Under the pieces are notes generated by a model, which was not told the origin of the DNA, made no database searches, and saw nothing but the letters and a program-made list of their open reading frames with translations. DNA of 64,000 nt from an uncultured virus (IMG/VR IMGVR_UViG_3300021084_000006) (lineage: Duplodnaviria; Heunggongvirae; Uroviricota; Caudoviricetes), in the IMG/VR virus record IMGVR_UViG_3300021084_000006, positions 1 through 64,000 of that record. One strand, 5' to 3'. The position numbers were made by a program, and so were the translations under genes. Positions within the stretch are counted from its first letter, which is position 1. Every line of letters begins with the position of its first letter. Positions 8,956-40,456 of this stretch are shown piece by piece.

Positions 8956-8974
8956 TTAATATAAAATAATTGTT

Positions 8975-12796: not shown

Positions 12797-12798
12797 TT

Positions 12799-15309: not shown

Positions 15310-15368
15310 ACCTTAAAGGTTTTAATTTATACCTTGTTAAACATATATAATTATAGTAAATTTACATT

Positions 15369-18659: not shown

Positions 18660-21600
18660 ATGGAGAACAATTTAGAAAGTAAAGGTTTAGATCAGGCTAT
18701 CAAAGCTAGTGAGGAAACAGGACCTCAGTTTGCTATTAATAAGGATATAGACTTTGTATCAGTTGATCAAGCGTATGAAGACCCAGAATATGATGCATAT
18801 ATTGATATGGCAGATACTGCTGCTATACAAAGGTTAGATCAGCAAAAAGATTTTATAGAAAAGTATGGTTCCGGTGTATATCAGAATATGGCTTTACCTA
18901 CACCATCTATGGCAAATGATACATATGATCCACAGATGCAAAGAAAGGCAAAAGTGCCTGGTGATACTATATCAAGAGATAACTCCGTAGAACAAACTAT
19001 TGATGAAGTTTTATATAATCAAGGAGTAAAATTAAATCAAAAACAAAAAGAAGGGAATTTAATTGCGTCTCCTCTTTACAGTGATAAAAGAGCAAATAGT
19101 TTTGACCGTTATTATCATCATCCAAAATTTGCTACATTAGGTTATAGTCCTTATGCAAATAATTCAGAATATTATAATGCAAATAGTACAGCTTGGGATG
19201 ATCTGTCTAGAACATGGACATCTGTAAAAGGATTATTTGGCATTGGTTTTACTTCTAGTTATGTAAGTGTTGGAGATGGTATGGATGGCAAATATGGAAA
19301 ATATGATTCAGGTAGTGCTGGTTCATATGAAGATTTTGTTGACATTGGTATGTCTGATAGAGGTGGAGCAACTCAATTTTTTAATAATTTACTAGTTAAT
19401 TCAGGTTATACTTTTGGTATAATAGGATCAATAGCATTAGAAGAACTTGCATTAGTAGGTTTAGAGGCAGCAACTTTTGGTGGTGCAACACCTTTGGTAG
19501 CTGCTAGAACAGCAACGAATGCTGCAAAATTAGCTAAAGCAGGTAAAAGAGTGGTAAACTCTTTTGGAGTAGGTAGAATGGCTACAGCAACAATGGATAT
19601 GTTAAAAGCCTTAAGGAATGCTGATATTGCTAAAGACTTTTATAGTGTAGGTAAATTTGTTGGAAAAGGAATAGCACCAGAAACTTATGCTGCAATTAAG
19701 GGTATAAGGACTGCAAAAAATACTGCAGGTAATCTTACCAACATGCGTAAAGCAGCAACAACCTTTGGAGGATTTTATAGAGATGTAAGATCTTTTAACT
19801 TGGCTATGGCAGAAAGCAAGCTTGAAGGTGGTATGCTTTATAATGAAAGGATGGATGAAGGCATGAGAGAAATGCAAGCAACCAACTTTGGTGGTCCAGT
19901 TACTGATTCACAAATGGCTAGGATACAGGAAAATGCTGCTAAAGCAGGTTTTGCATCTACTATGCAAAATTTACCTTTAATATTTGCCACTAATCAACTA
20001 GTTCTAGGTAATGCATTTGGTGGTTTTAATAAGTCATTTGCAAGAATGGCTAATCAAAACATAAAAGGTGGAGCTAGAAGAATTATTAAAACTTCAAAAA
20101 GTGTACTTAAAGATGGCACAAAAGCCTTAGATGTATTTGCTGATGCAGGTGCAGGATTAAAAGGTGTTGTTAAATCTATTGCTAACGCTGGTGTAAAGGG
20201 GAATCTTAGAACTGCAGCTGGTGCTAGTCTAAGATATTTTGCTGCTAATTTTGGTGAAGGTATTCAAGAATTAGGTCAAGAAGCAATTGCTACAGGAACA
20301 GGAGAATATTATAAAACATTATTAAAAGATCCGGGAGCAGGTGGATTAGAATTATATAATACAAGTTTAGCATCAGGAATTGGATCTCAATTTTCTGAGC
20401 AAGGGTTTGAAACCTTTATGTCTGGGTTCTTGATGGGTGGTGTTGTAGCAGGCCCACAAAAATTATTTTTTCAAGGAGTGCCTGCTATTTACAAAAGAAT
20501 TTCAGATCCTAAAGCATTTGCGGAGTACAAAGCAAATAAAGAAAAAGCTATTTCTTCATTGGTAGATACTTATAATGATACCTGGAACAAAATGGCAGAA
20601 GATCCAAATGCTGTTTTTGATCAAAAGAAGTTTAAATTTTTAGTTCAAAAGCAAGCTGCTGAAGGAATGTTAGAATCTGCATTTGAAAGTGATCAGTTTG
20701 GTTTTATAGATAGTAAAGATATTGCAAAGTTTAATCAAATTTATGATGTAATATCTAATGGTGGTGCAAGATTTTTTGAACAACAATTAAATGATTATGC
20801 AAACCTGGATGACGCTAGTTTAGCACAGGCATTTCCTACAGATAAACAACAAATAAAATCAGGTAAACTTAGAAAAAGATTTACTGACATGATTGATTCA
20901 ATTGGAGTCATGGAAGAAAACTTTAATAAGTTAAGTGATAAATATGAAAATCCTTTTGATGAAAGTAGATTTGAAAAAGGTACAAGAGAATTTCAAGAAG
21001 AAGCAATAAAAAGAATATCATTTGATCATGCACGTTATTTATACATGTTTACTAATGATGGATTTAATAGAGCTTTAGAAAGAGCAGATAGTATATTTCA
21101 GTCATTAGAATCAGATCCATTGTTTAAAGACATGGAGGCAAAAGATATTACTGTATTATTAGACAATGATTCAATTAATAATGAATTAAAACTTTTACTT
21201 CAAGAAGAGTTAATTTTAAAAGATGATAAAACTCAAAAAGGTAAAGTAAAAGAAATTAGAGAAAGAGCAAAAAGGTTAGGAGCTTTACAAGCAATCTTAA
21301 GTGACAAAAAAAATCTAAAAAAAGATGGATCATTTGATCAAAGAAAAATACTTAAACTTAAAACTGAATTTCACAACTATGTAAGATTCATGGCTAAAAA
21401 GTCAGGATCATTTGTGAATGAAGAGGTTGTAATGGACGCTCTTAAAAAAATTGTAGATCATAAAGCCCTTAAAGGTAGAGCAAGGGTATACTACAAGTCT
21501 ATTGAATACTTAAACAATCCTGAAAGATTTACAGAGATATATGAAAGAACAAATGAATTCTTAAAGAGTGCATTTAAAGATGTTCAAAGAAACTATAAAG

Positions 21601-24600
21601 AAGCAGTTGAAAAGTATATTGAAACAAAAGAACAAGTTCAACTTCTTAATGAAATAGCTAAACTTACTGATCACAAGGGTAACATGGTTATACCAGACCC
21701 TAATGAAGTTAAAAAATTCTCTATAACTAATAACCCATATGATCTTAAGACGTTCTATACAGAAGCAGGTACAGTTACAAAAAGGTTTAATGCAACTACA
21801 GTAACACAAATCAATGAAATACTGGGTGCCTATGCAAAAATAACTGAGCAGGATACAGTAGATCAAAAGACAGAAGAAGCACAAGCTGAAGAAACAAGGG
21901 CTGATGTTGAAGAGATACTCAGTGAAAATGGAGTAGAGATAGAACTACCTACTGGTGAATCCAAAGTATATACAGAAATACTAAGAAAAGGTTATAACAA
22001 ATATCTTGCTGATCAAGCAAACTTAAATAAAAATGCAGTAGACTTTAATGCTTGGATTAATACAGAAAATGGTAAAGCCTATAGACAATCATTTGCAGCA
22101 ATTAAAAAGATATGGATAGCAAATGATAAGTTAACAAACCCTAATAGATCTTTAACCCCAGAGCAGATTGAGAATGATGCAAACCTTATAAGTTGGTTAA
22201 CATCTCAAGAAGGAAAAACAAATGACTTGGTTGCTAAAATATTAGACAAGACTGGTTTAACCATCTCAGAAATAACAGGTATACAAGAACAAGCACCTAC
22301 AAAGAATAAACCATACAAGGGAAGAGCTAACACAGATGTTATTGAAAGCGGATCTTATGTAGCACTTGTACAAACTGAAACAGAAAACAAAAATGGTGAG
22401 AAAGAATTTCTTTATCAGTTGTTTGAAAATAGTACTGGTAGATTACTAGATGCTGAAATACTAAGTGCAAAAGGATTAGGTAATGTTAATGCTTTTTTAG
22501 TAAAGGGTCAAGCTATATCTGCTTATAAAAGACTAGAAAGTGATCAACCAAACTCAGCAGAGTTTCCATTTGATGGTGTTGAAGGTTTGTCATATGGTCA
22601 AAAGGTTTATAAAGATGGAATAGAATATACAATATTAAGTAATCCAAAAAAATTAGCTAATAAAGGAACACTTCTTTTAATACCATCTGATGCTCAATCA
22701 TTAACGTATGAGGAAAAGGTAGCACAAAAGGTATTTGTAAATGTAAAAAAAGGTGGGTTTAAAGATTTCTATACACTAGAAGAAATAGATTCAAAACGTT
22801 TACCTAATAGTGTTTCAAGATTAAACTTTAATGAACTTGTTACACCTTATGGTGCAAAGAATGAAGATGAAACTTCATGGAGTATAGCTAAGCAAAGATA
22901 TTTTGCTATAATTTCTGAATTATCTCAAGAAGACCTAAAAACTTTAGAACTTGTTGTTACACTAAATCCAGAGGCTGGTAAAAAAGGAGGGCAATATACT
23001 ATACCTGGTAAAGAAAGCAATGAATATATTACACGTACACAATCTAAATACCTTATTGGTATAAGAACAAACAGTGGTGTTGTACAAGATAAGATTGATG
23101 CATTGTTTGCTAAGAATGGTAGACTTGAAGGAGTAGATCCTTTTAAAAGTGATGCTAGAGTATTTGCTTTTTTACCTAATCAAAATTTTCAAATAGAGAT
23201 AGGTGGTAAAGTATTAACAGTTGATCAGCTTAACCCTAGTCAGTCAGCCAATATATTTGATGTATCTGATAATTTAAAAAATAAATTAACTGATGCACAA
23301 GTATTAGAAATAGTAAAGGAAAAATATGCAATAAATAATGCTCTCTTGGCAAAAATAGATGAGCAATTTGCAGAAAATTCAACAGATGGGAACACAGCAG
23401 TATTGTCTAAAGAACAATTACCTGAAGGATTTTCATTTAATTCTACACTTGGTAATGTTGTATATGATAAATCAGATAAAAAATTAACTGATTTAGAATA
23501 CAATGCAGCAGATGAAAATGGTAACTATTTGATTTATCAATTAGAAAAAAGTAAAACTGGAAGATCTAAAATAGTTATTACTAATCTAGAAGAAGATGCT
23601 AGAGAAGAACTAATTAATAAAGTAGAAACACAATTAGAAAAGCAAGGTTTACTAAGTGAGTTAAGCAAAGGAACAGATGCTTATAAAGCAGCTGTACTTT
23701 TACCTGATGGAACTTATAGACTTGTTCCTTTAAAGTCAGAGTCATTAGAAAATGAAGCAACTGATAAGCTGTTTGTTGATTTGATTACAAGAGCACAAAA
23801 AACACAAGAGGAAAATAAGAATGGAAAAGACCCTTCTTATAACAAAGAATGGAATGATAATCAAGGAGTGTGGATTAGTTCTTATCCAGGAATAACGGTA
23901 AAGCTTGAAGTAAATAAATATGGTAAAGTTCAATTGTCTATTGTTAAAGATGGTAAATGGACAAACTTAGAATTAACACGTGATGAGGTTAACGCAGCAG
24001 AAGATGTAGAAGTTAAGATCCAAAAATTAATTGATAGAGCTAATGAAACAACTGTTTTCAAAACAGCAGTTAGTAGTCCAGAGACAGGAAGTAAAATAGG
24101 TTTTACTTTATCTAGAAAAAACTTTAGAACATCTTATTCTAGAAGTGTAGGTGTTAATGAATTAATTGAGAAAACAACAACTCAAGCTAAAACTCAAGTT
24201 GTAGGTGTAAATACATTAGAAGTATTTGCTCCTTCAGGAACTACACAGAGTTCTTCTAATACAGAAACAACTACATCAGCTACGTTTACTCCAACCAGAG
24301 ATTATACAGATGCAGAGGGTAATCCAATACCTGCAGGCCCAGAGATGACAACTGCAAGTTCTAAAGAAAAAACTTTTACAGCAGAAGAATCTGAATATAG
24401 TATACTAGACTTAGAAGATAGTGAGTTTGATGCATATAAGGAAAATGACTTTAGAGATCTTCCTTCTTATATGATAGAGCATATTGTAAACAAAATCATA
24501 TCACCAGAGGGTGGAGTTGCGTTAAGAGAAAGAGAAAGACAAGTTTTTGAAAGTCCACGCAAGTCAGAAATAATGACTAGAATTGCTATACTAGGTGGTA

Positions 24601-27600
24601 CAGTTAAAGAAACAGAGATATCAGAAACACCTTTAAGTAAAATTGATAAAGAATTAACTGCTCTCAAAAAGAAATTACAAGAGGGTAAAAAAGGTGCAGC
24701 AAAAAGAAAAGCTTTAAAAGATAGTAAGGAATATCAAACATTACTAAAAAATAAAAAAGCAATAGAGTCTGCAGCTAATAAAGTAATGCCTGCATATACA
24801 GCGCAGGATTCAGAGAATGTAGATGTCTTTATGGCTTGGGCTGCAAACAACCTACCTGACTTCATTAGTATAGAGGACATAGGTGTATTAGGTAGCAACT
24901 TAAAAGCGGGTGGTGTAAGAGTTGGAGCTTTTGCTTTAAACTTACATGCATTAGCAGGAGGAATGAAAATTGGTGGAACAATATACACCGGTGCTAAATC
25001 TCCATTTAGATATCATGAAGCATTTCATGGTGTGTTTAGAATGTTGCTAAGTGATACAGAAATTAATAAGTACTTATCAATTGCAAGAAAAGAAGTAAGA
25101 AGCAAATTAAGAGCAGAAGGTAAAAACTTTTTACAAGAACTAGAAAGATTTAGAAATTCAGCAGACACATATACTAATATGAGTAAGGCTAGATTAGAAC
25201 AAGAATATTATGAAGAATATCTAGCAAATGAGTTTGAAGCATTTAAACAAAATCCAAAAAAGACTAAAACAGATTCCGGTGTCAAGTCTTTATTTACTAG
25301 GATTATGGAGTGGATTAAATCCGTATTTAATTCATACAATAAAAGTGAGTTGCTTACTTTATTTGAAAACATTGATGGTGGTAAATATCAGACAGCGTCA
25401 ATAGCTAACAATCAATTTATTAATACTCTTACTACAGGAGTTACAGTAGAAGCAAATGCATTAATACCTTATGATTCTATACAAGATGGAAAGAAGGTAG
25501 GTTTTTATTATTTAGATAGTGCTGTAGCTGATCCTATGATTAGAAGTATTGCTGCTATGTATTTACAAGCAGAACGTCAAGTTACAGAAACAGGTGTTAA
25601 AAGATCTGAAATATTTGATGCTGTCATAGATGATTTTTACAATCTATATGATCCAGAGAATGTAATAAACCTAGATAAAACAGATGCACAAAGAGAAGTA
25701 TTAGAAAATATAATTTTAGCATTAGATAATTATTTGGAGGTTATAAAACCACAAGTATATTCTGTATTAAATGTTATAGATAGTCAGATTACTGAAGAAG
25801 AATATAACACAGAGTACTTTGAAGACTCAGTAGGACTAAGAAGTATTGATCAGTGGAATACAGATGCATCATTAATTGGTGGATTAGAATCTACACCGAG
25901 ACATATACGTGCTTACTTGGCTACAACTACTAAAGAAGAAACAGATTTCTTTGGTAATAGAGAGTTAAAAGCTGGAGTACCTTTAATTATACCAGTAGAG
26001 TTTAATAAAGTATATAACGGTTTACTAAAAGCTGTTAAGAATATTGAAGATCCAAAAAAGATGTTGCGTACAATGTACTTCTTTGGACAAGATAATCTTG
26101 AAACAGGAGCAGTAGTGTCAAGATTATTGAATGATCTTGGTGTTAGTAAAGAAGCTTTGTTATCAAATAGCCCTTTACCTTTAGAATTAAAAAATCCTAG
26201 TTTGTTTCAAGCATTCACTAAAGCTTTTGAAAACTTTAGAGTAGAATATATATTTAGTCAAAGAGATTCAGCGGGTAATGTTATAATGTATTCTGCAGCT
26301 GAAAGAGATGATATAAATTCTCAAGTAGATGTTTGGTCACAAGCATGGAATGATGCAGAAAAGAAAATAAAAGTTGATTCTAGTAGAAAAGAAACTGTTG
26401 AAAAAACATTAGGTGCTTTTGGTAATTTATTATTGCCTTCATCAACACAGAAAACAGATAAGGAAATTAGTGAGTTGTCTCAAAAATACTCAGAGAAAAT
26501 ATTTGAACTTACAGGTATAAGACTAAGTAAGCAATACATTGCATTTAGTTTAACAGCAAACAGACCTCAAACCGAAGAGCAGGGAGCACTTCAGAGTGTG
26601 CATTCTAATGAAACACCTATTACTGAAGAGGCTATCCGTACAATGAATATATTGATTCAAAATGGTGAAGATATTTTTAATGAGGGTGAAGAAGGAATGT
26701 ATTCTAGATTAAGAACCCTAGCTATTAATAATGCACCTTTTGATGAAACAATTGGTTTATCTGTATTTAAAAATAGTGAGGGTAATTTAGTTTATGCTCA
26801 TCAAAAACCTACGTATCATTTAAAGCAAGTTGAAAAATTAAATACTGATGTTCAAGCTTTAGAAAAATTAAAACAAGAGAATCCTTATTTGAAAAATAAT
26901 TATCTTTTAAATAATGATGCGTTTATACAAATGTCTGCAGAGAACAGACAAAAAATATTAAGAATTGCTGGTACAGCTGTTGGTAATATAAATACTACTG
27001 AAGAAGAAATAAATGAAAGTATTTCTGGATTAAAGTCTAGATCCACTTATGGTAACTTCACACCACAAGAGTTTGCACTAAATTTACTGAACTCATATAC
27101 TTATGGTGTTAATACCAAATCTAATAAAGCTAATTTTGTAGAGTACTATGATACTAAGCTTGGTAAGAATGTTAAGGTTGCTTTAGCTCCTTCATTAATA
27201 AGGGTATTAGAATCTTCCAACACGGGGGATATGATGAACCTTCCTGTAATTAAAGCTGTTGAGTTTGTTAGTGGATCAACTGGTGCTGTAAAATTAACAG
27301 ATGAGGCTGTTGATACATATATAAGTTCAATTGAAACAGAGTATGACCGTATACTAAGAGAGTCAGCTCTAAGACGTGATAATCCTTTGCAAGTACAAAA
27401 GCTAGGTTATAATACTGAAGGAGGTAGAGCATACAAACTTCATAACTCTGCTTTATTTTTACCTCAAACAATAAGAATTGCACTAGAAGAAATAGCAACA
27501 CGTGATGATGCAAAAAGTTTGTCTGCTGCTTTATCTGAATTAGATATGACTATGGCTGATCTTAAGTCAAATGTAGTAGAAAGTTTAGAGCAACAATTTG

Positions 27601-30600
27601 AACTGTTTAAAGATGAGCTTAAAACATTAAACATAAATGAAGAAATAAGCAGTAAAGTTAGAGAAGGTTTGGTAAATAAAAATGTAAAAGCTACACCAGA
27701 TCTAATACAGTCAAATCAATTGCTAAATTTAAATTATGATCAAGAATATAATTTAAAACAAATCTTTTTTAATAACTGGATTAATACAAAATCAATCAAT
27801 GAGATATTATTAGGAGATCAAGCAGTTACTTTAAAGAATGGTGTAGATGCTATTAAAAGAGCAAAGGCACAGAATGCTTCAACAGTTAGTGCTTATAGTG
27901 CAATTACTGCTCCTGAATTAGGAATTAATCATCCTGTTGATAATATAAGTTTAGTTTCTTTAGAAGAACCAATTGGTGTATCATCTGTAACAGGTGACAA
28001 TATTGATATTGCTGATGCACAAATGTGGATGACTACAAAAGCATTTAGATATATGTTCTTTGGTTTTGGTAAATTAACACCAATGCAAGCCAAACTTATG
28101 GATAAAGTAGAGGCAGGAGAAACAATCTCATCTGAAGATATATTTGGTCAAGACGGTTATGTTAGTAATGGTGTAATGCTTAATTCTAAAAAACTTGTTT
28201 ATTTTGATGGTAGTACATTTATAAAGATGTCTGCTTTTATATTGACACCACAACTTACATCCAATAAAGTTGTAAATGCTAATGGTGAAGTTACATATAC
28301 TGCAAAAGAAAATAGAAAAGAATTACATGATCTAAGAGTAAAACTTGAAGGTATAGAAGCAATAAAAGACAAACAAACACTTGGTATTGCTGCGCCTTTG
28401 AGTGCTTTAAAAATGTTAAAGCAAAAAGTAAAAACATTAGAGGAAGTAAAAGCAGATGGTCAATTCAGTGAAAATGATTTTACATCATTATCAGCTAAAA
28501 ATATGGGTCTTCAATTAGAGGTACCTTCTAATAAACTTGAAACTGTTGAGCCTTCACAAATTAAAGCAATTATAACATCAGAACAAAAAGATGATGTATT
28601 TGTCAAAGAGCTTGGTTTAACTGTAGGTCAAATTAGAAAAGCGTACAATGAAGCAATTAGTGCTAGAGTTGAATTAAAGTTTAAGAATAAAAGAAATCTT
28701 ATTTTTACTTTTGACAGTGCTATGGAAGAGTTAAAAATCTCTATGGCTAAAGATAAGCTTACACCTAACTTAATGTCTTTTTTAAGATATGCAACAGAAG
28801 GTTTAAAGGCATCACAATCTAGCTCACAACTATTAGAGTTTTTCTCTACTGAAGAAGGAGAACAAAAATATGATTTGAATAACCCTATAACAATTAATAA
28901 GTTTGAGCAATTATTCTTAAGTTATTTAAGTAAAGGTGTTCTTGCTGAAAAACAACCGGGACATGCTTTAGCTTTGGTTTCTTCATACGGTATGAATATA
29001 TACAGAAGAGTTTATAGTGTAGATGAAAATGGTATTCCAGATAGATCAGAAGTTATTAGAGAAAAGTACTGGAACAAGATATCTAATAAACCAGAAGTTG
29101 TAGAATTTGACACACTTCTAGGCAGAAAGATTCCAAAAGAAGGTGTTGTAGTATTAGACCGTTTAAGATCTGGTGTTAAAGAATATGATAGCAAAGGTGT
29201 GTTTACAGGTCAAAGATATACTGAAATGCTAATGCCAGCACATTTTAAAAGCGTAATGGATTTAGTTGAGAATGGTAGCATGGCTAATATACCTGAAGTT
29301 ATATCTAAGATGTTTGCAATACGTATACCATCTCAAGATAATCATTCAACAATTAATATAAAGCATGTAGATTTCTTACCTGCCTTTTATGGTTCATCAG
29401 CAACATTTGCTCAAGAACTTGTTGAAATATCAGGAGCGGATTTTGATATTGATAAAGTATATGCTCAGATTAAAGAGTTTTATGTTAAAGATAAAAAGTT
29501 TATTGAATACGGTACTGCTAAAAATAACAATGATGCATATGATGACTATATTAATTACATAAATGAAAAGGTAAACAAACCAGGTACAATTTATTCTGAA
29601 GCTTATCAGTTATACAAAACAGATGAAGGATCAGCAAGAATACAAAACAGTGCAACAGAAGCTGAGGTTGGCGTTGCATCTGATGCGGGTGCTAGTGAGC
29701 AATCTATAAAAGCATTGCAAATGTTAGGATTACCTATTACTAAAGGACAATATGTAAACTATATAAAGAAAAATAAAACTGAACCTTATGAAGCACCATA
29801 TAACAATGAAGTATTAGATTATAAATATGCTTTAATGGGTAATACAGGTGTAACTGAATCAACTGAAGGTATACCAATATCTTATACAGCAGCAAACTTA
29901 GAGATTTTAGAATCTGAATTAGCAGCATTGGTACAACTTTCTGAAACCTTTGCACTACGTGATAGTGAAGACTCTGTGGATATTGATAATTTACTTGGTC
30001 AAATAAAAGCGTTTACAAGCAACAAAGGTGCTGCTATTGGTGCAATTGTATCTCCTAATGTTAACTTAAGTTTATTGACTGAGTATAAGATAAAACTAAA
30101 AGGTGATAACGGATTAAATTTTAATAATGTAACCTATGATAGTTTTGCAACATTAACTGAGAAACTTACCAAAACAAAAAATGGTCTTAGAAAGCAAGAT
30201 ATTATATCTTCTTTAATTACCATGGCTACAGATAATGCTAAAGAAAGATTAGTTGCAAAACTTGGTCTTAACAGAGCAGCATTATCATTGGTAGGTACAA
30301 TGACAGGTTTAGGTGTTCCAATTAGAACATCCTTACTCTTAGTCAACAATCCATTGATACGTGATATCTATAATGAAGCTTTAAATAAAAAAGATAAGTT
30401 AGATCCTGGAGTTAAGGCATTATCTAAAACTGCATTTGAAAATATTTTTAAAAGAATTGGGAATCTAAATGAAAAAGTAGTAGAGGTTGTAGTAACTGAT
30501 GAACTTTTATTAGAAGCTATTAATAGAACAGGTAAAGAAAGTATTGCTTCATTACAAGCAGATTTAGCTATACTAGATCAGTTTATATCTGCATTAAATA

Positions 30601-32762
30601 TTAATGATGAGGTTACCAAAATGACATCTGTTTCAAATCTAACAAAAGGGTTGGGTCAAAATATGGCTGCTGTAGCTGAGACAAGAAGAAACATATCAGA
30701 CTTAATGGACAGTGAGATGATGGATCTTAAATCTATTTATCAAGGTGACACATGGCTTTCAAAATATGTTGAAATATTTCAGCAAATATCTGATGAAATA
30801 TTACCATCAACATTTTTATCTGCTAGTGAATCATTCCAAGATATCTTGGATGAAGTTGTAATAAACATAAATGCAGGAGATATACAATTTACAGAAGAAA
30901 CATTAGCTGGTATATCAAGAGACTTATTGTCTTACATTACTATTAAAGCCTACATAAACAAAAAATTAGGTGTAGATGGTAATTCACAAAGTGTTGCTAC
31001 TTTAAGTAATGATTTAATCTATCCTGGAGATTATCAATCCATTAATGAAATAGTTGATAGAATGAGATCATCAGAAGCTGGACAAGACAATTTCTTCTTG
31101 GATAGTTTTGCAGTCAGTGTTAAATCAGATGAGCAAAGCAATAATACTGGTACAAATCAGCTAAATGCAAATACATTTAGAAGTTTAAATGCTGCACAAA
31201 AGATTGACTTACAAACTTCTTTTGCTAAGCTTTACGGTTCATTGGAGACAAAGGATGATGCTTTATCAATTATTAATTATATAATGGTAAAAGACGGTCT
31301 ACAATTATCATCAGGGTCATTACTAGATGCTGTTAGTCCATTTATTATGGAGAGTTATTTATCTCAAATTGAAACAGCAAATCAAGCATTAAGATCTAGA
31401 TCTACTGAAGAAGTATTTGGTTTATCTTTTACTGAGATGAAAAAAGAATTTATAGAAGGTTATCTTCTTTCAAATAAAAGTAATGCATTGTTGCAAACAT
31501 TTATTTCTTCTCCAGGATTTGTATCTAAAGGTATAAAGATTAAGGATAATAAAGCCACTGTTGCATGGAATGAAAAGCAAAAAATTGGTGGAAGTAAACT
31601 TTACTTTAGAGTTAAAAATGAAACTGATGCTGGAGTTATTACATCAATAGATACATATAAAAGAGATGAAGATTCACAAACTGACTATACAAAAATAGAT
31701 ACTGTTGGTTCTAATCAACAAAATGCTATTGGTTTTATGTTTGGTGAAAGACCTACATATAAAGCTGTTAGAGAGTATGTAAAAGAAAAAAATGATCTTG
31801 TAAATAAAAATGATGACATTGCTAATAATTCAGCAAGCTCATTAGCAGAGGAAAAAAGTCTAGCTGCTGTATATGCTGATGAAATTTTAAATGATCAAAC
31901 TGCAGATATAGTAGCAACAGAAGAAGGCATTACAGTGAATGGTGAAGATATAGCAGATGCAATAGAGTCATATGACCCAGATAATGTTGTTGATCCAGAA
32001 AATTTAGAAGGTAATTCTATTTCTGGTAATAGTATATTAAATCTAATTTCATCTGATACAATAAAAAGTGTAGAGGTGCCTGAGTACACAGTTAAAAATC
32101 TAGTAAATGAAGATGGTACTAAAAGACTAGCTTCAACTAATGGTAATCAAATATTTCTAAACCCTGTTGAATCTATAGAAGAGTTCTTTAATTATGTTAC
32201 TGGTAAACAAGGTGGTCAAACATCTAAACAAAAAGAACAAGTAATATTGGCTTTAGAAAAAGAAGGTTATACAGTAGACCAAATGAGAAACATTCTAGAT
32301 ACTAAGAAGAAAGTAAATACTTTTTTAGTTTTTCATGAGCAAGATCATATAGATAACAATGATAAAGATGTCTATTGGAAAAATGGGAAAGACTTGCTGA
32401 CTCAAGATAAAATAGATATTGAAGTTAGAGCTACAGTTGTTGCTTTGAAAAAGGTTCAAGAAATGCAGGCTGGTACAGAACAAACTGAATTAGATACTTC
32501 AGAAAATCAAGTATCAGAAACACCGTTAACAAATGAACTAATGGGTCAATTAAAGTTTGCATTAGATTTTGAATCTAAATATAACACTTTAATAAACTTT
32601 TGGGACAACAATGTACAAGGTAAACCTGAAATGAGAAGTAAGCTAAGAGCTCAAAATATATTATCTTTACAGGATATGATTGATGCATTTAATAATTCAA
32701 GTTTTGAAGAGACAGGTGTAGATCCACAAGATCAATTTTTAGAAAAGTTAGGTTGTTTATAA
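18660..32762 (+). CDS. Giant virion-associated DNA-dependent RNA polymerase (crAss/phi14:2 gp66-like) fused to hydrophobic N-terminal region and zincin-like domain(s)
   Basis: 'RIPSQ..SGADFDIDK' with DFDID at 29439-29453; HEAFH at 25014-25028 followed by 'EEYLANEF'; second HExxH (HEQDH) at 32334-32348; Gly/Ala-rich hydrophobic helices at ~19400-20500. Confidence 0.9.
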   Translation: MENNLESKGLDQAIKASEETGPQFAINKDIDFVSVDQAYEDPEYDAYIDMADTAAIQRLDQQKDFIEKYGSGVYQNMALPTPSMANDTYDPQMQRKAKVPGDTISRDNSVEQTIDEVLYNQGVKLNQKQKEGNLIASPLYSDKRANSFDRYYHHPKFATLGYSPYANNSEYYNANSTAWDDLSRTWTSVKGLFGIGFTSSYVSVGDGMDGKYGKYDSGSAGSYEDFVDIGMSDRGGATQFFNNLLVNSGYTFGIIGSIALEELALVGLEAATFGGATPLVAARTATNAAKLAKAGKRVVNSFGVGRMATATMDMLKALRNADIAKDFYSVGKFVGKGIAPETYAAIKGIRTAKNTAGNLTNMRKAATTFGGFYRDVRSFNLAMAESKLEGGMLYNERMDEGMREMQATNFGGPVTDSQMARIQENAAKAGFASTMQNLPLIFATNQLVLGNAFGGFNKSFARMANQNIKGGARRIIKTSKSVLKDGTKALDVFADAGAGLKGVVKSIANAGVKGNLRTAAGASLRYFAANFGEGIQELGQEAIATGTGEYYKTLLKDPGAGGLELYNTSLASGIGSQFSEQGFETFMSGFLMGGVVAGPQKLFFQGVPAIYKRISDPKAFAEYKANKEKAISSLVDTYNDTWNKMAEDPNAVFDQKKFKFLVQKQAAEGMLESAFESDQFGFIDSKDIAKFNQIYDVISNGGARFFEQQLNDYANLDDASLAQAFPTDKQQIKSGKLRKRFTDMIDSIGVMEENFNKLSDKYENPFDESRFEKGTREFQEEAIKRISFDHARYLYMFTNDGFNRALERADSIFQSLESDPLFKDMEAKDITVLLDNDSINNELKLLLQEELILKDDKTQKGKVKEIRERAKRLGALQAILSDKKNLKKDGSFDQRKILKLKTEFHNYVRFMAKKSGSFVNEEVVMDALKKIVDHKALKGRARVYYKSIEYLNNPERFTEIYERTNEFLKSAFKDVQRNYKEAVEKYIETKEQVQLLNEIAKLTDHKGNMVIPDPNEVKKFSITNNPYDLKTFYTEAGTVTKRFNATTVTQINEILGAYAKITEQDTVDQKTEEAQAEETRADVEEILSENGVEIELPTGESKVYTEILRKGYNKYLADQANLNKNAVDFNAWINTENGKAYRQSFAAIKKIWIANDKLTNPNRSLTPEQIENDANLISWLTSQEGKTNDLVAKILDKTGLTISEITGIQEQAPTKNKPYKGRANTDVIESGSYVALVQTETENKNGEKEFLYQLFENSTGRLLDAEILSAKGLGNVNAFLVKGQAISAYKRLESDQPNSAEFPFDGVEGLSYGQKVYKDGIEYTILSNPKKLANKGTLLLIPSDAQSLTYEEKVAQKVFVNVKKGGFKDFYTLEEIDSKRLPNSVSRLNFNELVTPYGAKNEDETSWSIAKQRYFAIISELSQEDLKTLELVVTLNPEAGKKGGQYTIPGKESNEYITRTQSKYLIGIRTNSGVVQDKIDALFAKNGRLEGVDPFKSDARVFAFLPNQNFQIEIGGKVLTVDQLNPSQSANIFDVSDNLKNKLTDAQVLEIVKEKYAINNALLAKIDEQFAENSTDGNTAVLSKEQLPEGFSFNSTLGNVVYDKSDKKLTDLEYNAADENGNYLIYQLEKSKTGRSKIVITNLEEDAREELINKVETQLEKQGLLSELSKGTDAYKAAVLLPDGTYRLVPLKSESLENEATDKLFVDLITRAQKTQEENKNGKDPSYNKEWNDNQGVWISSYPGITVKLEVNKYGKVQLSIVKDGKWTNLELTRDEVNAAEDVEVKIQKLIDRANETTVFKTAVSSPETGSKIGFTLSRKNFRTSYSRSVGVNELIEKTTTQAKTQVVGVNTLEVFAPSGTTQSSSNTETTTSATFTPTRDYTDAEGNPIPAGPEMTTASSKEKTFTAEESEYSILDLEDSEFDAYKENDFRDLPSYMIEHIVNKIISPEGGVALRERERQVFESPRKSEIMTRIAILGGTVKETEISETPLSKIDKELTALKKKLQEGKKGAAKRKALKDSKEYQTLLKNKKAIESAANKVMPAYTAQDSENVDVFMAWAANNLPDFISIEDIGVLGSNLKAGGVRVGAFALNLHALAGGMKIGGTIYTGAKSPFRYHEAFHGVFRMLLSDTEINKYLSIARKEVRSKLRAEGKNFLQELERFRNSADTYTNMSKARLEQEYYEEYLANEFEAFKQNPKKTKTDSGVKSLFTRIMEWIKSVFNSYNKSELLTLFENIDGGKYQTASIANNQFINTLTTGVTVEANALIPYDSIQDGKKVGFYYLDSAVADPMIRSIAAMYLQAERQVTETGVKRSEIFDAVIDDFYNLYDPENVINLDKTDAQREVLENIILALDNYLEVIKPQVYSVLNVIDSQITEEEYNTEYFEDSVGLRSIDQWNTDASLIGGLESTPRHIRAYLATTTKEETDFFGNRELKAGVPLIIPVEFNKVYNGLLKAVKNIEDPKKMLRTMYFFGQDNLETGAVVSRLLNDLGVSKEALLSNSPLPLELKNPSLFQAFTKAFENFRVEYIFSQRDSAGNVIMYSAAERDDINSQVDVWSQAWNDAEKKIKVDSSRKETVEKTLGAFGNLLLPSSTQKTDKEISELSQKYSEKIFELTGIRLSKQYIAFSLTANRPQTEEQGALQSVHSNETPITEEAIRTMNILIQNGEDIFNEGEEGMYSRLRTLAINNAPFDETIGLSVFKNSEGNLVYAHQKPTYHLKQVEKLNTDVQALEKLKQENPYLKNNYLLNNDAFIQMSAENRQKILRIAGTAVGNINTTEEEINESISGLKSRSTYGNFTPQEFALNLLNSYTYGVNTKSNKANFVEYYDTKLGKNVKVALAPSLIRVLESSNTGDMMNLPVIKAVEFVSGSTGAVKLTDEAVDTYISSIETEYDRILRESALRRDNPLQVQKLGYNTEGGRAYKLHNSALFLPQTIRIALEEIATRDDAKSLSAALSELDMTMADLKSNVVESLEQQFELFKDELKTLNINEEISSKVREGLVNKNVKATPDLIQSNQLLNLNYDQEYNLKQIFFNNWINTKSINEILLGDQAVTLKNGVDAIKRAKAQNASTVSAYSAITAPELGINHPVDNISLVSLEEPIGVSSVTGDNIDIADAQMWMTTKAFRYMFFGFGKLTPMQAKLMDKVEAGETISSEDIFGQDGYVSNGVMLNSKKLVYFDGSTFIKMSAFILTPQLTSNKVVNANGEVTYTAKENRKELHDLRVKLEGIEAIKDKQTLGIAAPLSALKMLKQKVKTLEEVKADGQFSENDFTSLSAKNMGLQLEVPSNKLETVEPSQIKAIITSEQKDDVFVKELGLTVGQIRKAYNEAISARVELKFKNKRNLIFTFDSAMEELKISMAKDKLTPNLMSFLRYATEGLKASQSSSQLLEFFSTEEGEQKYDLNNPITINKFEQLFLSYLSKGVLAEKQPGHALALVSSYGMNIYRRVYSVDENGIPDRSEVIREKYWNKISNKPEVVEFDTLLGRKIPKEGVVVLDRLRSGVKEYDSKGVFTGQRYTEMLMPAHFKSVMDLVENGSMANIPEVISKMFAIRIPSQDNHSTINIKHVDFLPAFYGSSATFAQELVEISGADFDIDKVYAQIKEFYVKDKKFIEYGTAKNNNDAYDDYINYINEKVNKPGTIYSEAYQLYKTDEGSARIQNSATEAEVGVASDAGASEQSIKALQMLGLPITKGQYVNYIKKNKTEPYEAPYNNEVLDYKYALMGNTGVTESTEGIPISYTAANLEILESELAALVQLSETFALRDSEDSVDIDNLLGQIKAFTSNKGAAIGAIVSPNVNLSLLTEYKIKLKGDNGLNFNNVTYDSFATLTEKLTKTKNGLRKQDIISSLITMATDNAKERLVAKLGLNRAALSLVGTMTGLGVPIRTSLLLVNNPLIRDIYNEALNKKDKLDPGVKALSKTAFENIFKRIGNLNEKVVEVVVTDELLLEAINRTGKESIASLQADLAILDQFISALNINDEVTKMTSVSNLTKGLGQNMAAVAETRRNISDLMDSEMMDLKSIYQGDTWLSKYVEIFQQISDEILPSTFLSASESFQDILDEVVININAGDIQFTEETLAGISRDLLSYITIKAYINKKLGVDGNSQSVATLSNDLIYPGDYQSINEIVDRMRSSEAGQDNFFLDSFAVSVKSDEQSNNTGTNQLNANTFRSLNAAQKIDLQTSFAKLYGSLETKDDALSIINYIMVKDGLQLSSGSLLDAVSPFIMESYLSQIETANQALRSRSTEEVFGLSFTEMKKEFIEGYLLSNKSNALLQTFISSPGFVSKGIKIKDNKATVAWNEKQKIGGSKLYFRVKNETDAGVITSIDTYKRDEDSQTDYTKIDTVGSNQQNAIGFMFGERPTYKAVREYVKEKNDLVNKNDDIANNSASSLAEEKSLAAVYADEILNDQTADIVATEEGITVNGEDIADAIESYDPDNVVDPENLEGNSISGNSILNLISSDTIKSVEVPEYTVKNLVNEDGTKRLASTNGNQIFLNPVESIEEFFNYVTGKQGGQTSKQKEQVILALEKEGYTVDQMRNILDTKKKVNTFLVFHEQDHIDNNDKDVYWKNGKDLLTQDKIDIEVRATVVALKKVQEMQAGTEQTELDTSENQVSETPLTNELMGQLKFALDFESKYNTLINFWDNNVQGKPEMRSKLRAQNILSLQDMIDAFNNSSFEETGVDPQDQFLEKLGCL

Positions 32763-32786
32763 ACATAGAAATAAGATATAATAGTT

Positions 32787-35700
32787 ATGGCTACATGTCC
32801 AAATAAAAACGCAGCAGAATACAAAGCTTTACAAGCAGTGTATAAAACAGAATTAAAGACAAATGATGTCATTAATAGCTGGCAACGTGTTAATAATACA
32901 GATGTAATACCTACAACGGTAGAGGCAAATAGATATGTAAAAAACCAAAAAACAGTTTATGCATTAAAGCAAAAAGCATTTGGTGAAAGTCTTTTGAATA
33001 ATTTACGTAGAGAAAAAATTATACATCAGTATCAGGGTACTTATTTTATTAATAACTCCAATCAGCAGACTAGAGAGTATGATGAAGTATTTCTGCAAAA
33101 AAACTATGACAAACTACAAAGGTATTTAGAAATAAATAATATTCCTTTAGATTCTATATCACTAACAAGAACACCTAAAACATTTAAAGTAGCTGTCAAG
33201 AATGATATATTCACACCTCAAGATATTTTAACAAAGTCTAGATCTTGGGATACAAATAGATCAAGGGCTGTTGTTACACATTTAATGAGGATGTTTCCCC
33301 AGATAAAAGTAAAAATGCTATCAGTAGCAGATGCTAAAGCTGTATATGATACTATCCCAAAGTGGAAAAAAACATCTGCAAATTTTTCTGAAGTTAATTC
33401 ATTTTATGTTGATGGTGTAGCATACTTAATTAGAGGAAGAGTAACTGATGAAACTGCTATAGAAGAAATGCTTCACCCATTTATAGATGCAATTAAAGTA
33501 GATAATGCAGAGCTTTTTAATGGTTTACTAGCTGAAGCAAAAAGAAACTTTCCTCAAATGGTTCAGGAAATTACAGATGCATATAATAGTGACAGAAGAT
33601 TTACTCAGGTTGAAAGAGATTTAGAAATTGTAACACAAGCATTAACAAGACATTTCAAACAAGAATATGAAACTAAGCCAACTCAAACATTCTTAAATAG
33701 AATAAACCAAGCATTGGAGTGGTTTATGAATGTAATTAAAGACTTGCAAAACTACATTACAGGTGCAGCTTTACCAGTAACTGCAATAAACAGCAGTACA
33801 AACTTTAGTACTCTAGCCAAACTTCTTAATACAGAGGGTATAAGGTTTAATCTTGAAAGTAGAGCTAATGGTAAAGTTAGGTATGCTTTAACTCCAAAAA
33901 AACAAAAAATAGTAGATGCTACATTAAAAGTGTCTAATGGATTGCAGCAAGAAATAATTAAAAAAATGTTTCAGGTTGCAACGTCAACTAAAGAAGAAGT
34001 TGACTCTTTATCTGTTAATATTAATGTAGCAGAGCAAGGAGATGACATAGTAATACTAAATGAAAAAGATCATACATACTATAACTTAGCTACAGGAGAA
34101 ATATATGAATCTGTTACTACTGCTATAAAAGGTAAAATGCCTAAGTCAAAGCAAGTAGAAAATCAAATTAACCTTGATATTGGTAATGATGTAGATGCAT
34201 TATTAGATGCGTTGGTGTCTTTTGAATCTTTTGAAAGTGCTATTCCAAACATGCAAGTTTTAAATGCTGAGCAGGCGGAGGAAGTATATAAAAGATTAAA
34301 AGATGAGCTGTCACAAATAATTCCTAAGTCAACAGTACTTATATCACAAGTAGTAGTATTTGATCCTGCAACTAAGATTGCCGGTACTGCAGATTTAATT
34401 GCAATTGATGAAAATGGAAACATAAAGATTATTGATTTAAAAACCAGTAAGAATTCCATATACAAAAAAACTGTTAAAGATTCATTTGTTAGTGGTATAC
34501 CAGGTAGATCAGAAGTATTTCAGTATGAAACTAAAGAGTGGGATATTTTACCATCTACAGAAGATGTAATAGAAGATTTAGAAGATAATAATGTAAAGAA
34601 GGAAGACGGTAATAAATATTCTAAAGAGCAAATAAAGAATAGGAAAGAAGAACTTGCACCTACACTTTATAAAAAAGCAGGAGTTACAAAGCTTTCTACA
34701 AGAGGTCAGCATAACTTACAAGTAAACATGTATAAACGTATGTTTGAAAACATGGGTTATAAAGTTTTAGGTAATGAAAATGGTGCGGCAACCTTCCATA
34801 TGTTAGCAGATATAAGTGGAAAAGGTAAGGATCAAGTATTTAATGGTGGTATAAAGTATGATGGTTTATATCAACACAAGGCAACAGAAGAACAAGATAA
34901 GGTAGACAAATTAATACCTGCTGATAATAGCACGGCTGCTGCTAAAAAATTAGAAGAACTTACAAAAGACAATGAAAATCTTGCTTACGTAGGTAAAGAT
35001 GAAGATATAGAGCAAGTAGAAAATAATATCCCAGAAGAAAACTATCCTGAGTATAATACAATCTTTGGTGCATTAGAAGGTTTTGCAGCTGGTCTTCTTA
35101 ATAAGCAACAAGCTCTTGAAACTATTGCTAGTAAAACCTTCACTACTCAAAATAAAGAATTAACACGTGATGAGATTGCAAGAGCTGTTGCTTTAATACG
35201 TATGAATTTAGGGGCCGGTTCAGATGCTAGATCACAGACTTACACAGCAATGTTGAGGTATGGGTTAAAAGAAATAAGACAATTTAAAGATTATGTTGAA
35301 GATCCAAATAATGTTACAAAGCCTGAGTATATAACTTTTGTTTTAAATTTTAACAGATTTATTGCCACATATGAAAGCTTATATTCAATTGCAGAATCTA
35401 GTGAATTAAATGCTACACAAAGATCTTTAGTTCTACAAATGCAAATTGAAGTTAATAAACTTGTAGGAACAGAAAACACTGAAGGTATAATTAATCAAGC
35501 ATACACTGATTTTGTAAAAGAGACGGTTAGATTAAGATCAGATAAAAATTTTGGTGCAGAAAACAGCTTGTTTACTGAGGAAGATCTTGATCAGTTGATG
35601 AAAAGAGTAGAAGACATAAGCACTATAGAATTGCTTACTAAAGATATGGCTACTCAGAAAGATACTTTGATGGCTGTTATGGATAAAATCTATAAAAGAC

Positions 35701-38612
35701 AAAAGCAAATACTCTTAGATAAAATAGCACAACGTGAAGATCTAATAAGGAAGTCAGGTAATAAACTATTAAAGCTTTCTCAAGGTAGTGATAAAAATAA
35801 GATTTATGACTTTATGCTTGAGTATGATAAAGATGGTAAATTCACTGGCTTCTATACTAAATCAATTGGTCAAAAGTATTATGAAAAATCTCAAGAGCTT
35901 TATTCTGAACTAAGTGATGCTAATGGTACGCCTTATGAGTATCACAAAATATACAACATTGAAGATGCTACAGAAAAGCAACTACAAGAAAATATTGACT
36001 TAGCAAATAAAAAGAGAGCTTATAGTGATTTTTATAAAGCAGAGGATACATCAGTAGATATAGATGCAAACGGTAATCTTCCGGGTGGTAAGTATCACAG
36101 ATTTACTCAAGAATTTATAGAAGTAAGAAGAAAGAATGAGACTTATGTTTATAATGAGAAAACAGGCTATGGAGAATGGATGAGAAAAGCTGGAGTAAGT
36201 AATGCTCAATGGTCAGAGTATCAAGCAAAGTATTACAAGTTCAATCCTTATACAAAAGCATTAAGAAAGAATGGTGTACCTATTGGTACTATACTTGAAG
36301 ATCAAGTTTTTCCTGCACCTAAAGAACAATATGTTGAAGCAAGAGAGATTACATCAGAGGGTGAGGATATGCGTAGTGAAAAATATAAAGCTTTGTATGA
36401 TCCAACAAAAACTGATGCATTAACAATGGCTCAGAGAGAGTTCTATGAACTTTATGTAAGATTTTATGAAGAAGAGTTATTAAAAAAATTACCTCAGAAT
36501 ACTAAAGATAGAATGGCAGGTAGAGTACCTGTGGTTAAAAATGAATTAATTAGTAAACTAAAAGGAGAGGGTCCATTGTTTAGTAAGCTTTATGCTAATA
36601 CTATTAGAGGGTTTAAAAACTTTACTGAGCAAACAGCTACAGAAAAAAATGTTTTACTTGATGAGCAAGGTAATTTTGTAAATGGCTTACCAATCATGTA
36701 TACTGGTAGTACTAAGATAGATGGTCAACTAGAAGAAGTTGAATCTCAGATACGTGCTTTAAAAGATGAATACAAGAAAGGTAAAATATCAAGAACCAAC
36801 TATAATACAAAAGTAGCTAAGCTAAATGCAAACGCAGCTAGCCTAAGAAATCAACCTTCTCTAGGTGAAGTAAGCACTGACTTGGCAAGTAGTTTAATTA
36901 AGTTTAGTGCAATGGCTGAGCATTATGAAGTAATGGGTGAGATAGAAGACACTCTTACTGCTTTTGTAAAGGTTATAGAAAACAGAGAGTATGATCCTTC
37001 TCCAGATACATCAACCAAATTCTTTGGGCGTGCTGTTGATGGAGTTATGAAAGGTGTTGGATACACTAAAGAAACTAAAGGTGCATCCAATGTAGCAAAG
37101 AGAGCAAGAAAATACATGTCTATGATTTTCTATGATAATGAGCTTGTAACAAAAGGGATGGCTAATAAAATAGCTGATAACTTAGTTGCTGCATCTTCTC
37201 TTACATATGTAGCATTTAACCCACTAGGTAACTTCAATAACTACGTTATGGGTAGGTTAAATAATAATATAGAGATGCTTGGTGGTAGATACTTTAGTAA
37301 GAAGAACTTTTTACGTGCTGGGAAAGAATATAATCTGCAGGCATTGCAATCAGGTATATTTAAAAGACTTGGTACTGCAACACTAGATCTTGCAGATATT
37401 GCAACTCTAGGTAAAGCAGGGTTAAAAGTCTCTAACTATGATCCAGATAAAGCCAATAACAAATATGAAGGTTTTGTAGAAGAGTTTAGAATGATGGATC
37501 CTTCTACTGATATACGTGAATCTGGTAGAGATAATGATGGTAAAACTGTTTGGGAAAGATTTAAAGCCTGGGGTTATGTTTTACAGGATGCTGCAGAATA
37601 TAATGTACAAACAAGAGTTGGTATATCAATGCTTATGGACACCATAATAGAAAACTCTAAGACTGGTGAATCATTATCTTTTTATGATGCTCACAGCTTT
37701 AATCAAGAAACACATAAACTTGAGTTAAAAGAAGGCTATGATACAATAGTAACTAAAGATGGTAACAAAATTAAATACACTGATGAGTTTAGATATGACA
37801 TTAGAAATAAGATACGTGAAGTAAACAAACAAATTCATGGTAACTATGCCAAGGAGGACAAAATGGTTCTTCAAAGTTACACTTTAGGTAACCTAGCAGC
37901 ACAGTTCAAGAAATGGGTTGCTCCTGCAATAAGGTCAAGATTTCAAAGAGAATACTTTGATGAGAACTTAGGCCATATGGAAGGAAGATATAGATCATTC
38001 TGGAAATTTTTAGCTTACACAAAGCAACAAATCTTTTTAGGTAATAGAGATTTTAGAAAATACTCTGATGGTTTCTTAGAAGAATATGGTTTTACTGGTA
38101 AAGGTGGTAATAGAGATCAGTTTGCTGTAAATAAACTTAAAGGTTTTTATAGAACCATGGGTGAAGCAGGTATCATATTAACTGTTATGGCAATGAACTT
38201 ATTATTTGATGGTTTATTAAGTGGAGATGATGATGATAGTGATGCAATGATAAAACTAAAACATGCTTTAAAGAAGCAAGGTAGTAGAACCTATCAAGAA
38301 CTTGTTGCTTTTGTACCAGTATCACCTGCTGGTTGGGAACAATTGTTTGGTATGATAGAGAGTCCAATAGCAACCACAAAAGTTTTAGGTGAAATGACTG
38401 AAGCATTCACACAAACTATATTTACTCCAGCTGCAATGTTATATTATAGTGATAAAGAGTTTTATTCAAACTCAGACTATGTATATCAAAATAGACCTAG
38501 AAGAGGTCAGCTTAAGTTAGCTAAAGAGTGGAAAGATGTTATTCCAATTTTATATACAATACAAAAATGGGACAACTTAATTAAAGAGCAAGAGTACAGT
38601 ATTAAGTACTAA
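32787..38612 (+). CDS. Large virion/ejected protein with degenerate zincin-like domain and PD-(D/E)XK nuclease domain
   Basis: EEMLHP at 33462-33479 (HExxH with first His lost); 'ESVTT..IAGTADLIAID..KIIDLKT..LQVNMY' (~34050-34880); long helical C-terminus with a hydrophobic segment. Confidence 0.7.
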   Translation: MATCPNKNAAEYKALQAVYKTELKTNDVINSWQRVNNTDVIPTTVEANRYVKNQKTVYALKQKAFGESLLNNLRREKIIHQYQGTYFINNSNQQTREYDEVFLQKNYDKLQRYLEINNIPLDSISLTRTPKTFKVAVKNDIFTPQDILTKSRSWDTNRSRAVVTHLMRMFPQIKVKMLSVADAKAVYDTIPKWKKTSANFSEVNSFYVDGVAYLIRGRVTDETAIEEMLHPFIDAIKVDNAELFNGLLAEAKRNFPQMVQEITDAYNSDRRFTQVERDLEIVTQALTRHFKQEYETKPTQTFLNRINQALEWFMNVIKDLQNYITGAALPVTAINSSTNFSTLAKLLNTEGIRFNLESRANGKVRYALTPKKQKIVDATLKVSNGLQQEIIKKMFQVATSTKEEVDSLSVNINVAEQGDDIVILNEKDHTYYNLATGEIYESVTTAIKGKMPKSKQVENQINLDIGNDVDALLDALVSFESFESAIPNMQVLNAEQAEEVYKRLKDELSQIIPKSTVLISQVVVFDPATKIAGTADLIAIDENGNIKIIDLKTSKNSIYKKTVKDSFVSGIPGRSEVFQYETKEWDILPSTEDVIEDLEDNNVKKEDGNKYSKEQIKNRKEELAPTLYKKAGVTKLSTRGQHNLQVNMYKRMFENMGYKVLGNENGAATFHMLADISGKGKDQVFNGGIKYDGLYQHKATEEQDKVDKLIPADNSTAAAKKLEELTKDNENLAYVGKDEDIEQVENNIPEENYPEYNTIFGALEGFAAGLLNKQQALETIASKTFTTQNKELTRDEIARAVALIRMNLGAGSDARSQTYTAMLRYGLKEIRQFKDYVEDPNNVTKPEYITFVLNFNRFIATYESLYSIAESSELNATQRSLVLQMQIEVNKLVGTENTEGIINQAYTDFVKETVRLRSDKNFGAENSLFTEEDLDQLMKRVEDISTIELLTKDMATQKDTLMAVMDKIYKRQKQILLDKIAQREDLIRKSGNKLLKLSQGSDKNKIYDFMLEYDKDGKFTGFYTKSIGQKYYEKSQELYSELSDANGTPYEYHKIYNIEDATEKQLQENIDLANKKRAYSDFYKAEDTSVDIDANGNLPGGKYHRFTQEFIEVRRKNETYVYNEKTGYGEWMRKAGVSNAQWSEYQAKYYKFNPYTKALRKNGVPIGTILEDQVFPAPKEQYVEAREITSEGEDMRSEKYKALYDPTKTDALTMAQREFYELYVRFYEEELLKKLPQNTKDRMAGRVPVVKNELISKLKGEGPLFSKLYANTIRGFKNFTEQTATEKNVLLDEQGNFVNGLPIMYTGSTKIDGQLEEVESQIRALKDEYKKGKISRTNYNTKVAKLNANAASLRNQPSLGEVSTDLASSLIKFSAMAEHYEVMGEIEDTLTAFVKVIENREYDPSPDTSTKFFGRAVDGVMKGVGYTKETKGASNVAKRARKYMSMIFYDNELVTKGMANKIADNLVAASSLTYVAFNPLGNFNNYVMGRLNNNIEMLGGRYFSKKNFLRAGKEYNLQALQSGIFKRLGTATLDLADIATLGKAGLKVSNYDPDKANNKYEGFVEEFRMMDPSTDIRESGRDNDGKTVWERFKAWGYVLQDAAEYNVQTRVGISMLMDTIIENSKTGESLSFYDAHSFNQETHKLELKEGYDTIVTKDGNKIKYTDEFRYDIRNKIREVNKQIHGNYAKEDKMVLQSYTLGNLAAQFKKWVAPAIRSRFQREYFDENLGHMEGRYRSFWKFLAYTKQQIFLGNRDFRKYSDGFLEEYGFTGKGGNRDQFAVNKLKGFYRTMGEAGIILTVMAMNLLFDGLLSGDDDDSDAMIKLKHALKKQGSRTYQELVAFVPVSPAGWEQLFGMIESPIATTKVLGEMTEAFTQTIFTPAAMLYYSDKEFYSNSDYVYQNRPRRGQLKLAKEWKDVIPILYTIQKWDNLIKEQEYSIKY

Positions 38613-40450: not shown

Positions 40451-40456
40451 ATTGTT

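Follow-up and report, generated by a model that had tools for sequence, protein, structure and literature searches.

Facing terminal cysteines at the cargo junctions of crAss-like phages: a candidate disulfide coupling between the giant virion RNA polymerase and its neighbour

The 64,000-nucleotide (nt) stretch of DNA analysed here (the window; positions 1 to 64,000 of IMG/VR record IMGVR_UViG_3300021084_000006, from an uncultured virus of the Caudoviricetes) carries two adjoining giant genes, one for a virion RNA polymerase (RNAP) of 4700 amino acids (aa) and the other for a protein of 1941 aa. Each of the two products contains a single cysteine, and these two cysteines lie on either side of the gene junction, one near the C-terminus of the polymerase and the other near the N-terminus of its neighbour. 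The terminal pair is strongly conserved, and is a rule of the Crassvirales at unfused RNAP cargo junctions. The lone cysteines are likely to be a conserved coupling pair, in which a disulfide would join the C-terminus of the RNAP to the N-terminus of the next protein and make the two a single thread of some 6,640 residues. The features of the junction are as follows.

18660..32762, plus strand: virion RNAP, 4700 aa; GADFDIDK motif, with DFDID at offset 3593; tblastn and blastp matches to crAss001 gp50; sole cysteine at residue 4699
32535..32759, plus strand: C-terminal 75 aa of the RNAP, presumed docking end; variable, terminating in an EEFIxxIKxC-like segment
32754..32756, plus strand: TGT codon of Cys4699, the penultimate residue of the RNAP
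32763..32786, plus strand: AT-rich spacer of 24 nt between the two giant genes
32787..38612, plus strand: last cargo protein (C), 1941 aa, homolog of crAss001 gp49 and phi14:2 gp076 by blastp; sole cysteine at residue 4
32787..33026, plus strand: N-terminal 80 aa of the 1941-aa protein, presumed docking end (alignment A2 and AlphaFold2 model)
32796..32798, plus strand: TGT codon of Cys4 of the 1941-aa protein

Judged by its sequence the window comes from a crAss-like phage, as it has a match to the crAss muzzle protein and a GADFDIDK polymerase matching crAss001 gp50. Its RNAP cargo block is homologous to those of crAss001 (gp47-gp50-gp49) and phi14:2 (gp078-gp077-gp076; GenBank gp077 is the 2180-aa RNAP that is also called gp66), and the 1941-aa protein matched crAss001 gp49 (1e-19) and phi14:2 gp076 (9e-6) in blastp. 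A profile made from the N-terminal part of the RNAP matched separate first cargo proteins (A), namely L123_0 (3e-8) and the A protein of Dulem virus 41 (2e-4); in the reverse direction the A profile gave no direct match to the 4700-aa open reading frame (ORF). Such an A protein, gp47-like and fused to the polymerase, probably makes up the N-terminal part of this ORF. In comparison with the cargo blocks of crAss001 and phi14:2, A and RNAP are apparently fused in the window, so that one junction is left. Mass spectrometry of crAss001, for which samples were run both reduced and untreated, identified gp47, gp49 and gp50 as virion proteins, and they need partial unfolding to pass the tail (PMC10172136). 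By homology the window phage presumably packages its giant proteins as well.

Cysteine counts bore out what the first-pass annotation had read by eye from the translations. The RNAP, ending in KLGCL, and its neighbour, beginning with MATCPN, have exactly one cysteine each, at the positions that had been given; the 836-aa and 1091-aa ORFs have none, and in the 1008-aa and 1273-aa ORFs cysteine occurs only at motifs, as C626 and C631 within a YkuD domain (H...SNGCINGKC) and as C475 and C480 in an H...ESNCATGVC motif, for which a catalytic role is likely. The muzzle/tail ORF, in contrast, contains 29 cysteines. Over the whole contig, there are 6 cysteines in the 10,841 aa of the six presumed cargo ORFs and 139 in the 11,399 aa of the other 36 ORFs, a frequency of 0.055% versus 1.2% in the rest of the proteome. 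The two giants have 2 cysteines where about 81 are expected; if each is granted one, the probability that both lie by chance within the facing 10 residues is about 1e-5. The purge of cysteine from cargo proteins that the annotation had proposed is real, although it has already been published for the ejection proteins of phages N4 and DEV, where the suppression was attributed to passage through the periplasm (PMC11445570).

A sample of RNAP loci blind to cysteine was collected with a DNA pattern for GADFD[IV]DK. It comprised 120 loci from an estimated 280, 80 of them with flanks, and in 71 of these 80 the motif was found inside an ORF of at least 1000 aa (L111, L121, L124, L130, L133, L137, L143, L166 and L170 were left out of the blind sample). 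A cysteine is present within the last 10 aa of 67 of the 70 visible RNAP C-termini and within the first 10 aa of 65 of the 67 adjoining next genes; dereplication at 80% identity around the motif gave 50/53 and 48/50, respectively. The positions range from -1 to -5 on the C-terminal side and from +3 to +5 on the N-terminal side, and internal cysteines in this sample number 17 in 274,316 residues. A second search, using a DNA pattern for MAxCPNKN alone, found 89 viral loci, from which seven short ORFs were excluded; in 81 of the 82 long MAxCPNKN ORFs, many of them from closely related loci, the upstream ORF carries a cysteine in its last 10 residues, the exception being L089. The co-conservation of the two ends, which the annotation had named as a check, is thus strong, and it extends to chains of two to four proteins.

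The same holds at the other end of the polymerase. Twenty of 28 visible RNAP N-termini have a cysteine, and 18 of these 20 are preceded by a cysteine-ending gene; the eight without it are accounted for by two sequence errors and six apparent A-RNAP fusions, three of which match the A profile while three share the N-terminal region of the window's protein. The chains have a polarity: a C-terminal cysteine was found in only 3 of 50 complete next proteins, each preceding another cysteine-starting gene. L164 was considered as an exception and rejected, as a GTG start yields MTCQL.

The sequence flanking the cysteine varies widely among groups, and also between the first and second junction within one genome. 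In an alignment of RNAP C-termini (A1), whose 51 rows were picked for possessing the cysteine, no column other than that of the cysteine reaches 90% conservation, and mean column identity is 23%. No charge complementarity of the paired ends was found (rho -0.12, p 0.27). The AlphaFold2 model of the N-terminal 80 aa of the 1941-aa protein (mean pLDDT 92.9) has helices at residues 10-19, 22-36 and 44-75, and would put Cys4 on a non-helical arm preceding these three predicted helices. Co-folding of both termini (A1 with A2) scored 0.31 against a mark of 0.32, with individual runs at 0.32, 0.31 and 0.29 and controls at 0.00-0.02.

All 12 named crAss-type records have the cysteine at the expected ends, and they span the Steigviridae, Intestiviridae and Suoliviridae. 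They are crAss001, Carjivirus communis, phi14:2, cr116_1, cr110_1 (read from the second methionine), cr4_1 (translated with table 15), cr3_1, cr85_1, cr50_1, cr111_1, Rudgehvirus jaberico and Dulem virus 41. In phi14:2 there are four cysteines in 5,398 aa, every one at a junction, and the candidate pairs are C1797-C3 and C2179-C3; in crAss001 they are gp47 C2339-gp50 C5 and gp50 C2404-gp49 C5. Gut phages have several internal cysteines in their RNAP proteins and retain the terminal ones (L092, L093 and L217-L225), while most environmental relatives have no internal ones; purging is possibly laxer in gut crAss phages, with their anaerobic hosts.

The pair tracks gene boundaries, being present at unfused junctions and absent at fused ones. 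Fusion of the crAss A, RNAP and C proteins into one polyprotein has been described for some phages (bioRxiv 2020.03.07.982082). One such protein is encoded by L108 (minus strand, 722-16711 of the reverse complement): this A-RNAP-C polyprotein of 5329 aa matches crAss001 gp47, gp50 and gp49 in that order and contains no cysteine at all. Four Intestiviridae fusions of RNAP and C have the N-terminal cysteine and lack the C-terminal one. At L135 the RNAP is split where 44 other proteins hold both parts in one chain, and the split ends form a cysteine pair, the first piece ending in VEVRC and the second beginning with MAC. Short middle pieces with a cysteine at both ends were found in L005, L012, L134, L164 and L168, and the C-termini of three of them resemble RNAP C-termini of relatives. 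Relocation leaves the cysteine in place: crAss001, cr85_1 and cr116_1 carry the A gene on the opposite strand, yet its C-terminal cysteine is retained in each (in crAss001 gp47 it is the sole one, at 2339 of 2341), which points to a function at the protein level. In cr116_1 an endonuclease-like gene has been inserted after the first piece of the RNAP, and the cysteine at the end of this piece was excluded from the counts. Two candidate splits without a cysteine pair were rejected, since L104 is the same as the unsplit L147 bar about 100 nt, likely an assembly error, and L116 has collinear frameshifts that are likely sequencing errors.

We propose that the termini of the RNAP and of the 1941-aa protein dock during packaging, and that their thiols would then oxidise in the virion to form a disulfide, which would replace the peptide bond of the fused polyprotein. 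With very short overhangs the chain would be nearly unbranched, so that the partly unfolded proteins could exit the tail in a fixed order and at a 1:1 ratio, and would remain joined while they cross the envelope. Further cysteines would be selected against, since they could mis-pair. In keeping with this proposal, crAss001 virions have disulfides in capsid and tail, and their cargo has to unfold in part on its way out (PMC10172136). We regard the disulfide bond itself as quite probable, and lean only slightly towards a role of the pair in ordered ejection. Reduction of the bond in the cytoplasm after delivery, which the annotation had also suggested, is possible but found no support and is not needed by the evidence; the existence of the complete fusion in L108 suggests that a redox release step is unnecessary.

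A bond of this kind is present in cyanophage A4 (Anabaena phage A-4L). Cryo-electron microscopy of A4 showed gp27 with its C-terminal helix lodged in gp26, and a Cys1715-Cys5 disulfide between the two proteins was modelled in the mature virion (PMC12002296). Like the window, A4 has adjoining giant ejection genes with sole cysteines at the facing ends, residue 1715 of 1717 in gp27 and residue 5 in gp26. Unlike the crAss phages it has a single link, and the paper contains no RNAP chain; nor does it mention crAss phages or frame the bond as a general device. The crAss link may, by analogy, work as the A4 link does, and we do not class it as a member of the A4 type. In Pf-WMP4 (L228), ORF32 and ORF31 have the same sole pair (C1457 of 1459 and C5), and this repeat of the A4 pattern suggests that the A4 bond is likely conserved in the Saffermanviridae. 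Like the A4 proteins, those of Pf-WMP4 gave no match to the crAss profiles.

Other ejection systems share the purge only. N4 and DEV (Schitoviridae) resemble the window in having a giant ejected RNAP with suppressed cysteine, but this is a single polypeptide and has no terminal cysteine pair (PMC11445570); the N4-type RNAP is unrelated to the crAss RNAP (PMC13434306). No cysteine is found in T7 gp15 and gp16, in P22 gp7, gp20 and gp16 or in phi13:2 gp124-127, and T7 gp14 has only Cys2. Purging of cysteine is thus general among ejection proteins, and the facing pair is not. Generic DNA junction patterns, which are a weak test, found no third phage group with the pair. Among the 229 loci found with GC-rich patterns, many of them short and most of them looking like chance matches, none had a junction of giant ORFs; an AT-rich pattern gave two ORFs of at least 150 aa in 11 of 80 examined loci, of which 8 matched the crAss A or C profiles and 3 had ordinary or cysteine-rich ORFs.

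The disulfide could be real and still only stabilise the packed assembly before ejection, or set the stoichiometry of packaging, with no pulling through the tail. The A4 authors describe their bond as extra stabilisation of the helix-in-cleft contact (PMC12002296), and the splitting of a polyprotein, as in L135, puts the new ends side by side, which alone accounts for the terminal placement. However, stapling does not require strict head-to-tail polarity, overhangs of at most 5 residues or the absence of other bonds, and the same authors also propose a chain reaction at ejection (PMC12002296); we consider a purely stabilising role rather unlikely. Still less probable is a bridge in which the cysteines of both termini bind a metal such as zinc, conceivably linking two or more copies of the chain. 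Virions are assembled in the reducing cytoplasm, where metal binding would need no oxidant, and since the capsid has room for each protein in several copies, four thiols might come together. Nevertheless there is no second conserved ligand: of the 82 upstream ends only 3 have a histidine within 8 residues of the cysteine, and of the 82 downstream ends only 5; CxxC is absent from the junctions, and the sole solved case of this geometry, A4, was modelled as a disulfide (PMC12002296). The annotation had left the choice between an inter-chain disulfide and a metal bridge: the former is strengthened by the A4 precedent and the latter is the weaker candidate.

It is very improbable that the cysteines arise as by-products at the DNA or translation level, be it from splicing, ligation, read-through or a coupling signal, or that they serve each protein separately as a tag for packaging or modification. 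The cysteine codon is TGT at 127 of 134 upstream and 126 of 134 downstream ends, a predominance that would fit such a signal and that is expected for AT-rich genomes. On the other hand the reading-frame relation across the 134 junctions is random (gap modulo 3 of 47/43/44), the pair outlasts separation onto opposite strands in crAss001, cr85_1 and cr116_1, and the first and last members of a chain bear only the junction-facing cysteine. Inteins have cysteine or serine at position 1 and a terminal His-Asn, and lipoproteins a signal peptide with a lipobox; neither intein ends nor a lipoprotein signal peptide was seen in the translations or the terminal alignments. The fully fused L108 has no cysteine, which indicates that the cysteine is not a packaging tag. 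These explanations are largely refuted.

Several observations weigh against a coupling by disulfide or limit its generality. The motif sample is biased toward relatives of the window. A4 gp26 and gp27 showed no homology to the crAss A and C profiles, or by blastp, and the A4 precedent is for this reason an analogy only. The T7, P22, phi13:2 and N4-like proteins have no pair, so ejection generally does not need one. In crAss001, gp47, gp49 and gp50 are not resolved in the maps (PMC10172136). Recombinant phi14:2 gp66, purified with dithiothreitol, transcribes single-stranded DNA alone (bioRxiv 2020.03.07.982082); as it is active without partners, catalysis is independent of the link. Gut crAss phages infect anaerobic hosts and still retain the pair, and a disulfide there would need an oxidant. 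Among individual loci, the RNAP-motif protein of L162 has no cysteine in 3877 visible aa, no next gene and no match to the C profile, and is possibly another type of fusion; in L168 the RNAP cysteine lies 61 aa before the end and the next gene encodes a YkuD protein without an N-terminal cysteine. The next gene in L161 has a cysteine only at residue 20 and the upstream gene has none, L120 has no adjacent gene, the RNAP of L133 is fragmented with most pieces lacking the pair, and L089 has no upstream cysteine.

In L168 (13250-15900, plus strand) the tail after the RNAP cysteine contains KHSQGGVDI and the next gene begins with EVEGGE; both motifs co-occur in the window's 836-aa ORF (residues 77 and 104), so that a domain may have been split here, or an insertion may have left a scar. 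The YkuD gene of this locus, which is related to that of the window's 1008-aa protein, lies between the RNAP and a 148-aa linker with two cysteines.

Upstream of the two giants the window contains the following.

213-5888: muzzle/tail ORF; Pfam crAss_MUZ PF25731, E 1.3e-15
5888..18644, plus strand: four presumed cargo genes (1008, 1273, 836 and 1091 aa); cysteine-purged, terminal cysteines absent

As the four presumed cargo proteins have no terminal cysteine, we place them outside the chain. The 1008-aa protein (5888-8914), in the cargo block, has SLT, LysM and YkuD domains (Pfam YkuD at 481-650) and is likely an ejected cell-wall enzyme. The 1273-aa protein (8975-12796) had no Pfam match above threshold, and its GHIQ...ESNCATGVC motif resembles a permuted papain-like amidase. 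A zincin-like HEAFH motif was seen in the 4700-aa RNAP protein and a degenerate EEMLHP in the 1941-aa protein. Searches of PHROGs and Pfam gave a family for neither giant protein, and PDB sequence searches matched neither at E up to 1; the 1941-aa protein had a weak PD-(D/E)XK nuclease match (residues 469-562, E 0.001), under the cut-off. No capsid, portal or TerL gene was identified on the 71,814-nt contig, which starts inside the tail block. The regions 38825-41648 and 50684-52484 of the window encode both subunits of a class I ribonucleotide reductase, a spore photoproduct lyase-like protein, MazG and PhoH, and these genes suggest an aerobic and probably aquatic host.

The suppression of cysteine in ejected proteins (N4 and DEV), the fusion of crAss cargo proteins and one such disulfide (A4) are already published. 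The terminal cysteine rule of the Crassvirales is real and apparently unpublished so far: a literature search, which missed most subscription papers, found no publication on it, and the terms cysteine and disulfide are absent from bioRxiv 2020.03.07.982082 and PMC7886860. Terminal cysteines of crAss cargo are not mentioned in PMC10172136, whose disulfides are those of capsid and tail, or in PMC13434306. The crAss001 paper attributes the order of the cargo to packing and unspecified interactions (PMC10172136).

The rule addresses the question of how several megadaltons of cargo are ordered and delivered through the narrow tail of crAss-like phages, which include the most abundant human gut viruses. 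It pinpoints the exact residues and candidate bonds in two cultured phages, phi14:2 and crAss001, yields the functional order of the cargo genes even after rearrangement, and connects the fused and split forms. In its widest form, which we put forward tentatively and rate a little below an even chance, the pair would be a modular cysteine coupler. Every break in the ancestral polyprotein, new breaks and inserted modules included, would carry a facing pair; two to four giant proteins would become a covalent train of at least 6,000 residues, drawn through the tail in the order of the genes and delivering the RNAP and the modules coupled to it; and cyanopodophages would use the same device with unrelated proteins. 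If true, this would be a two-residue route to a post-translational polyprotein.

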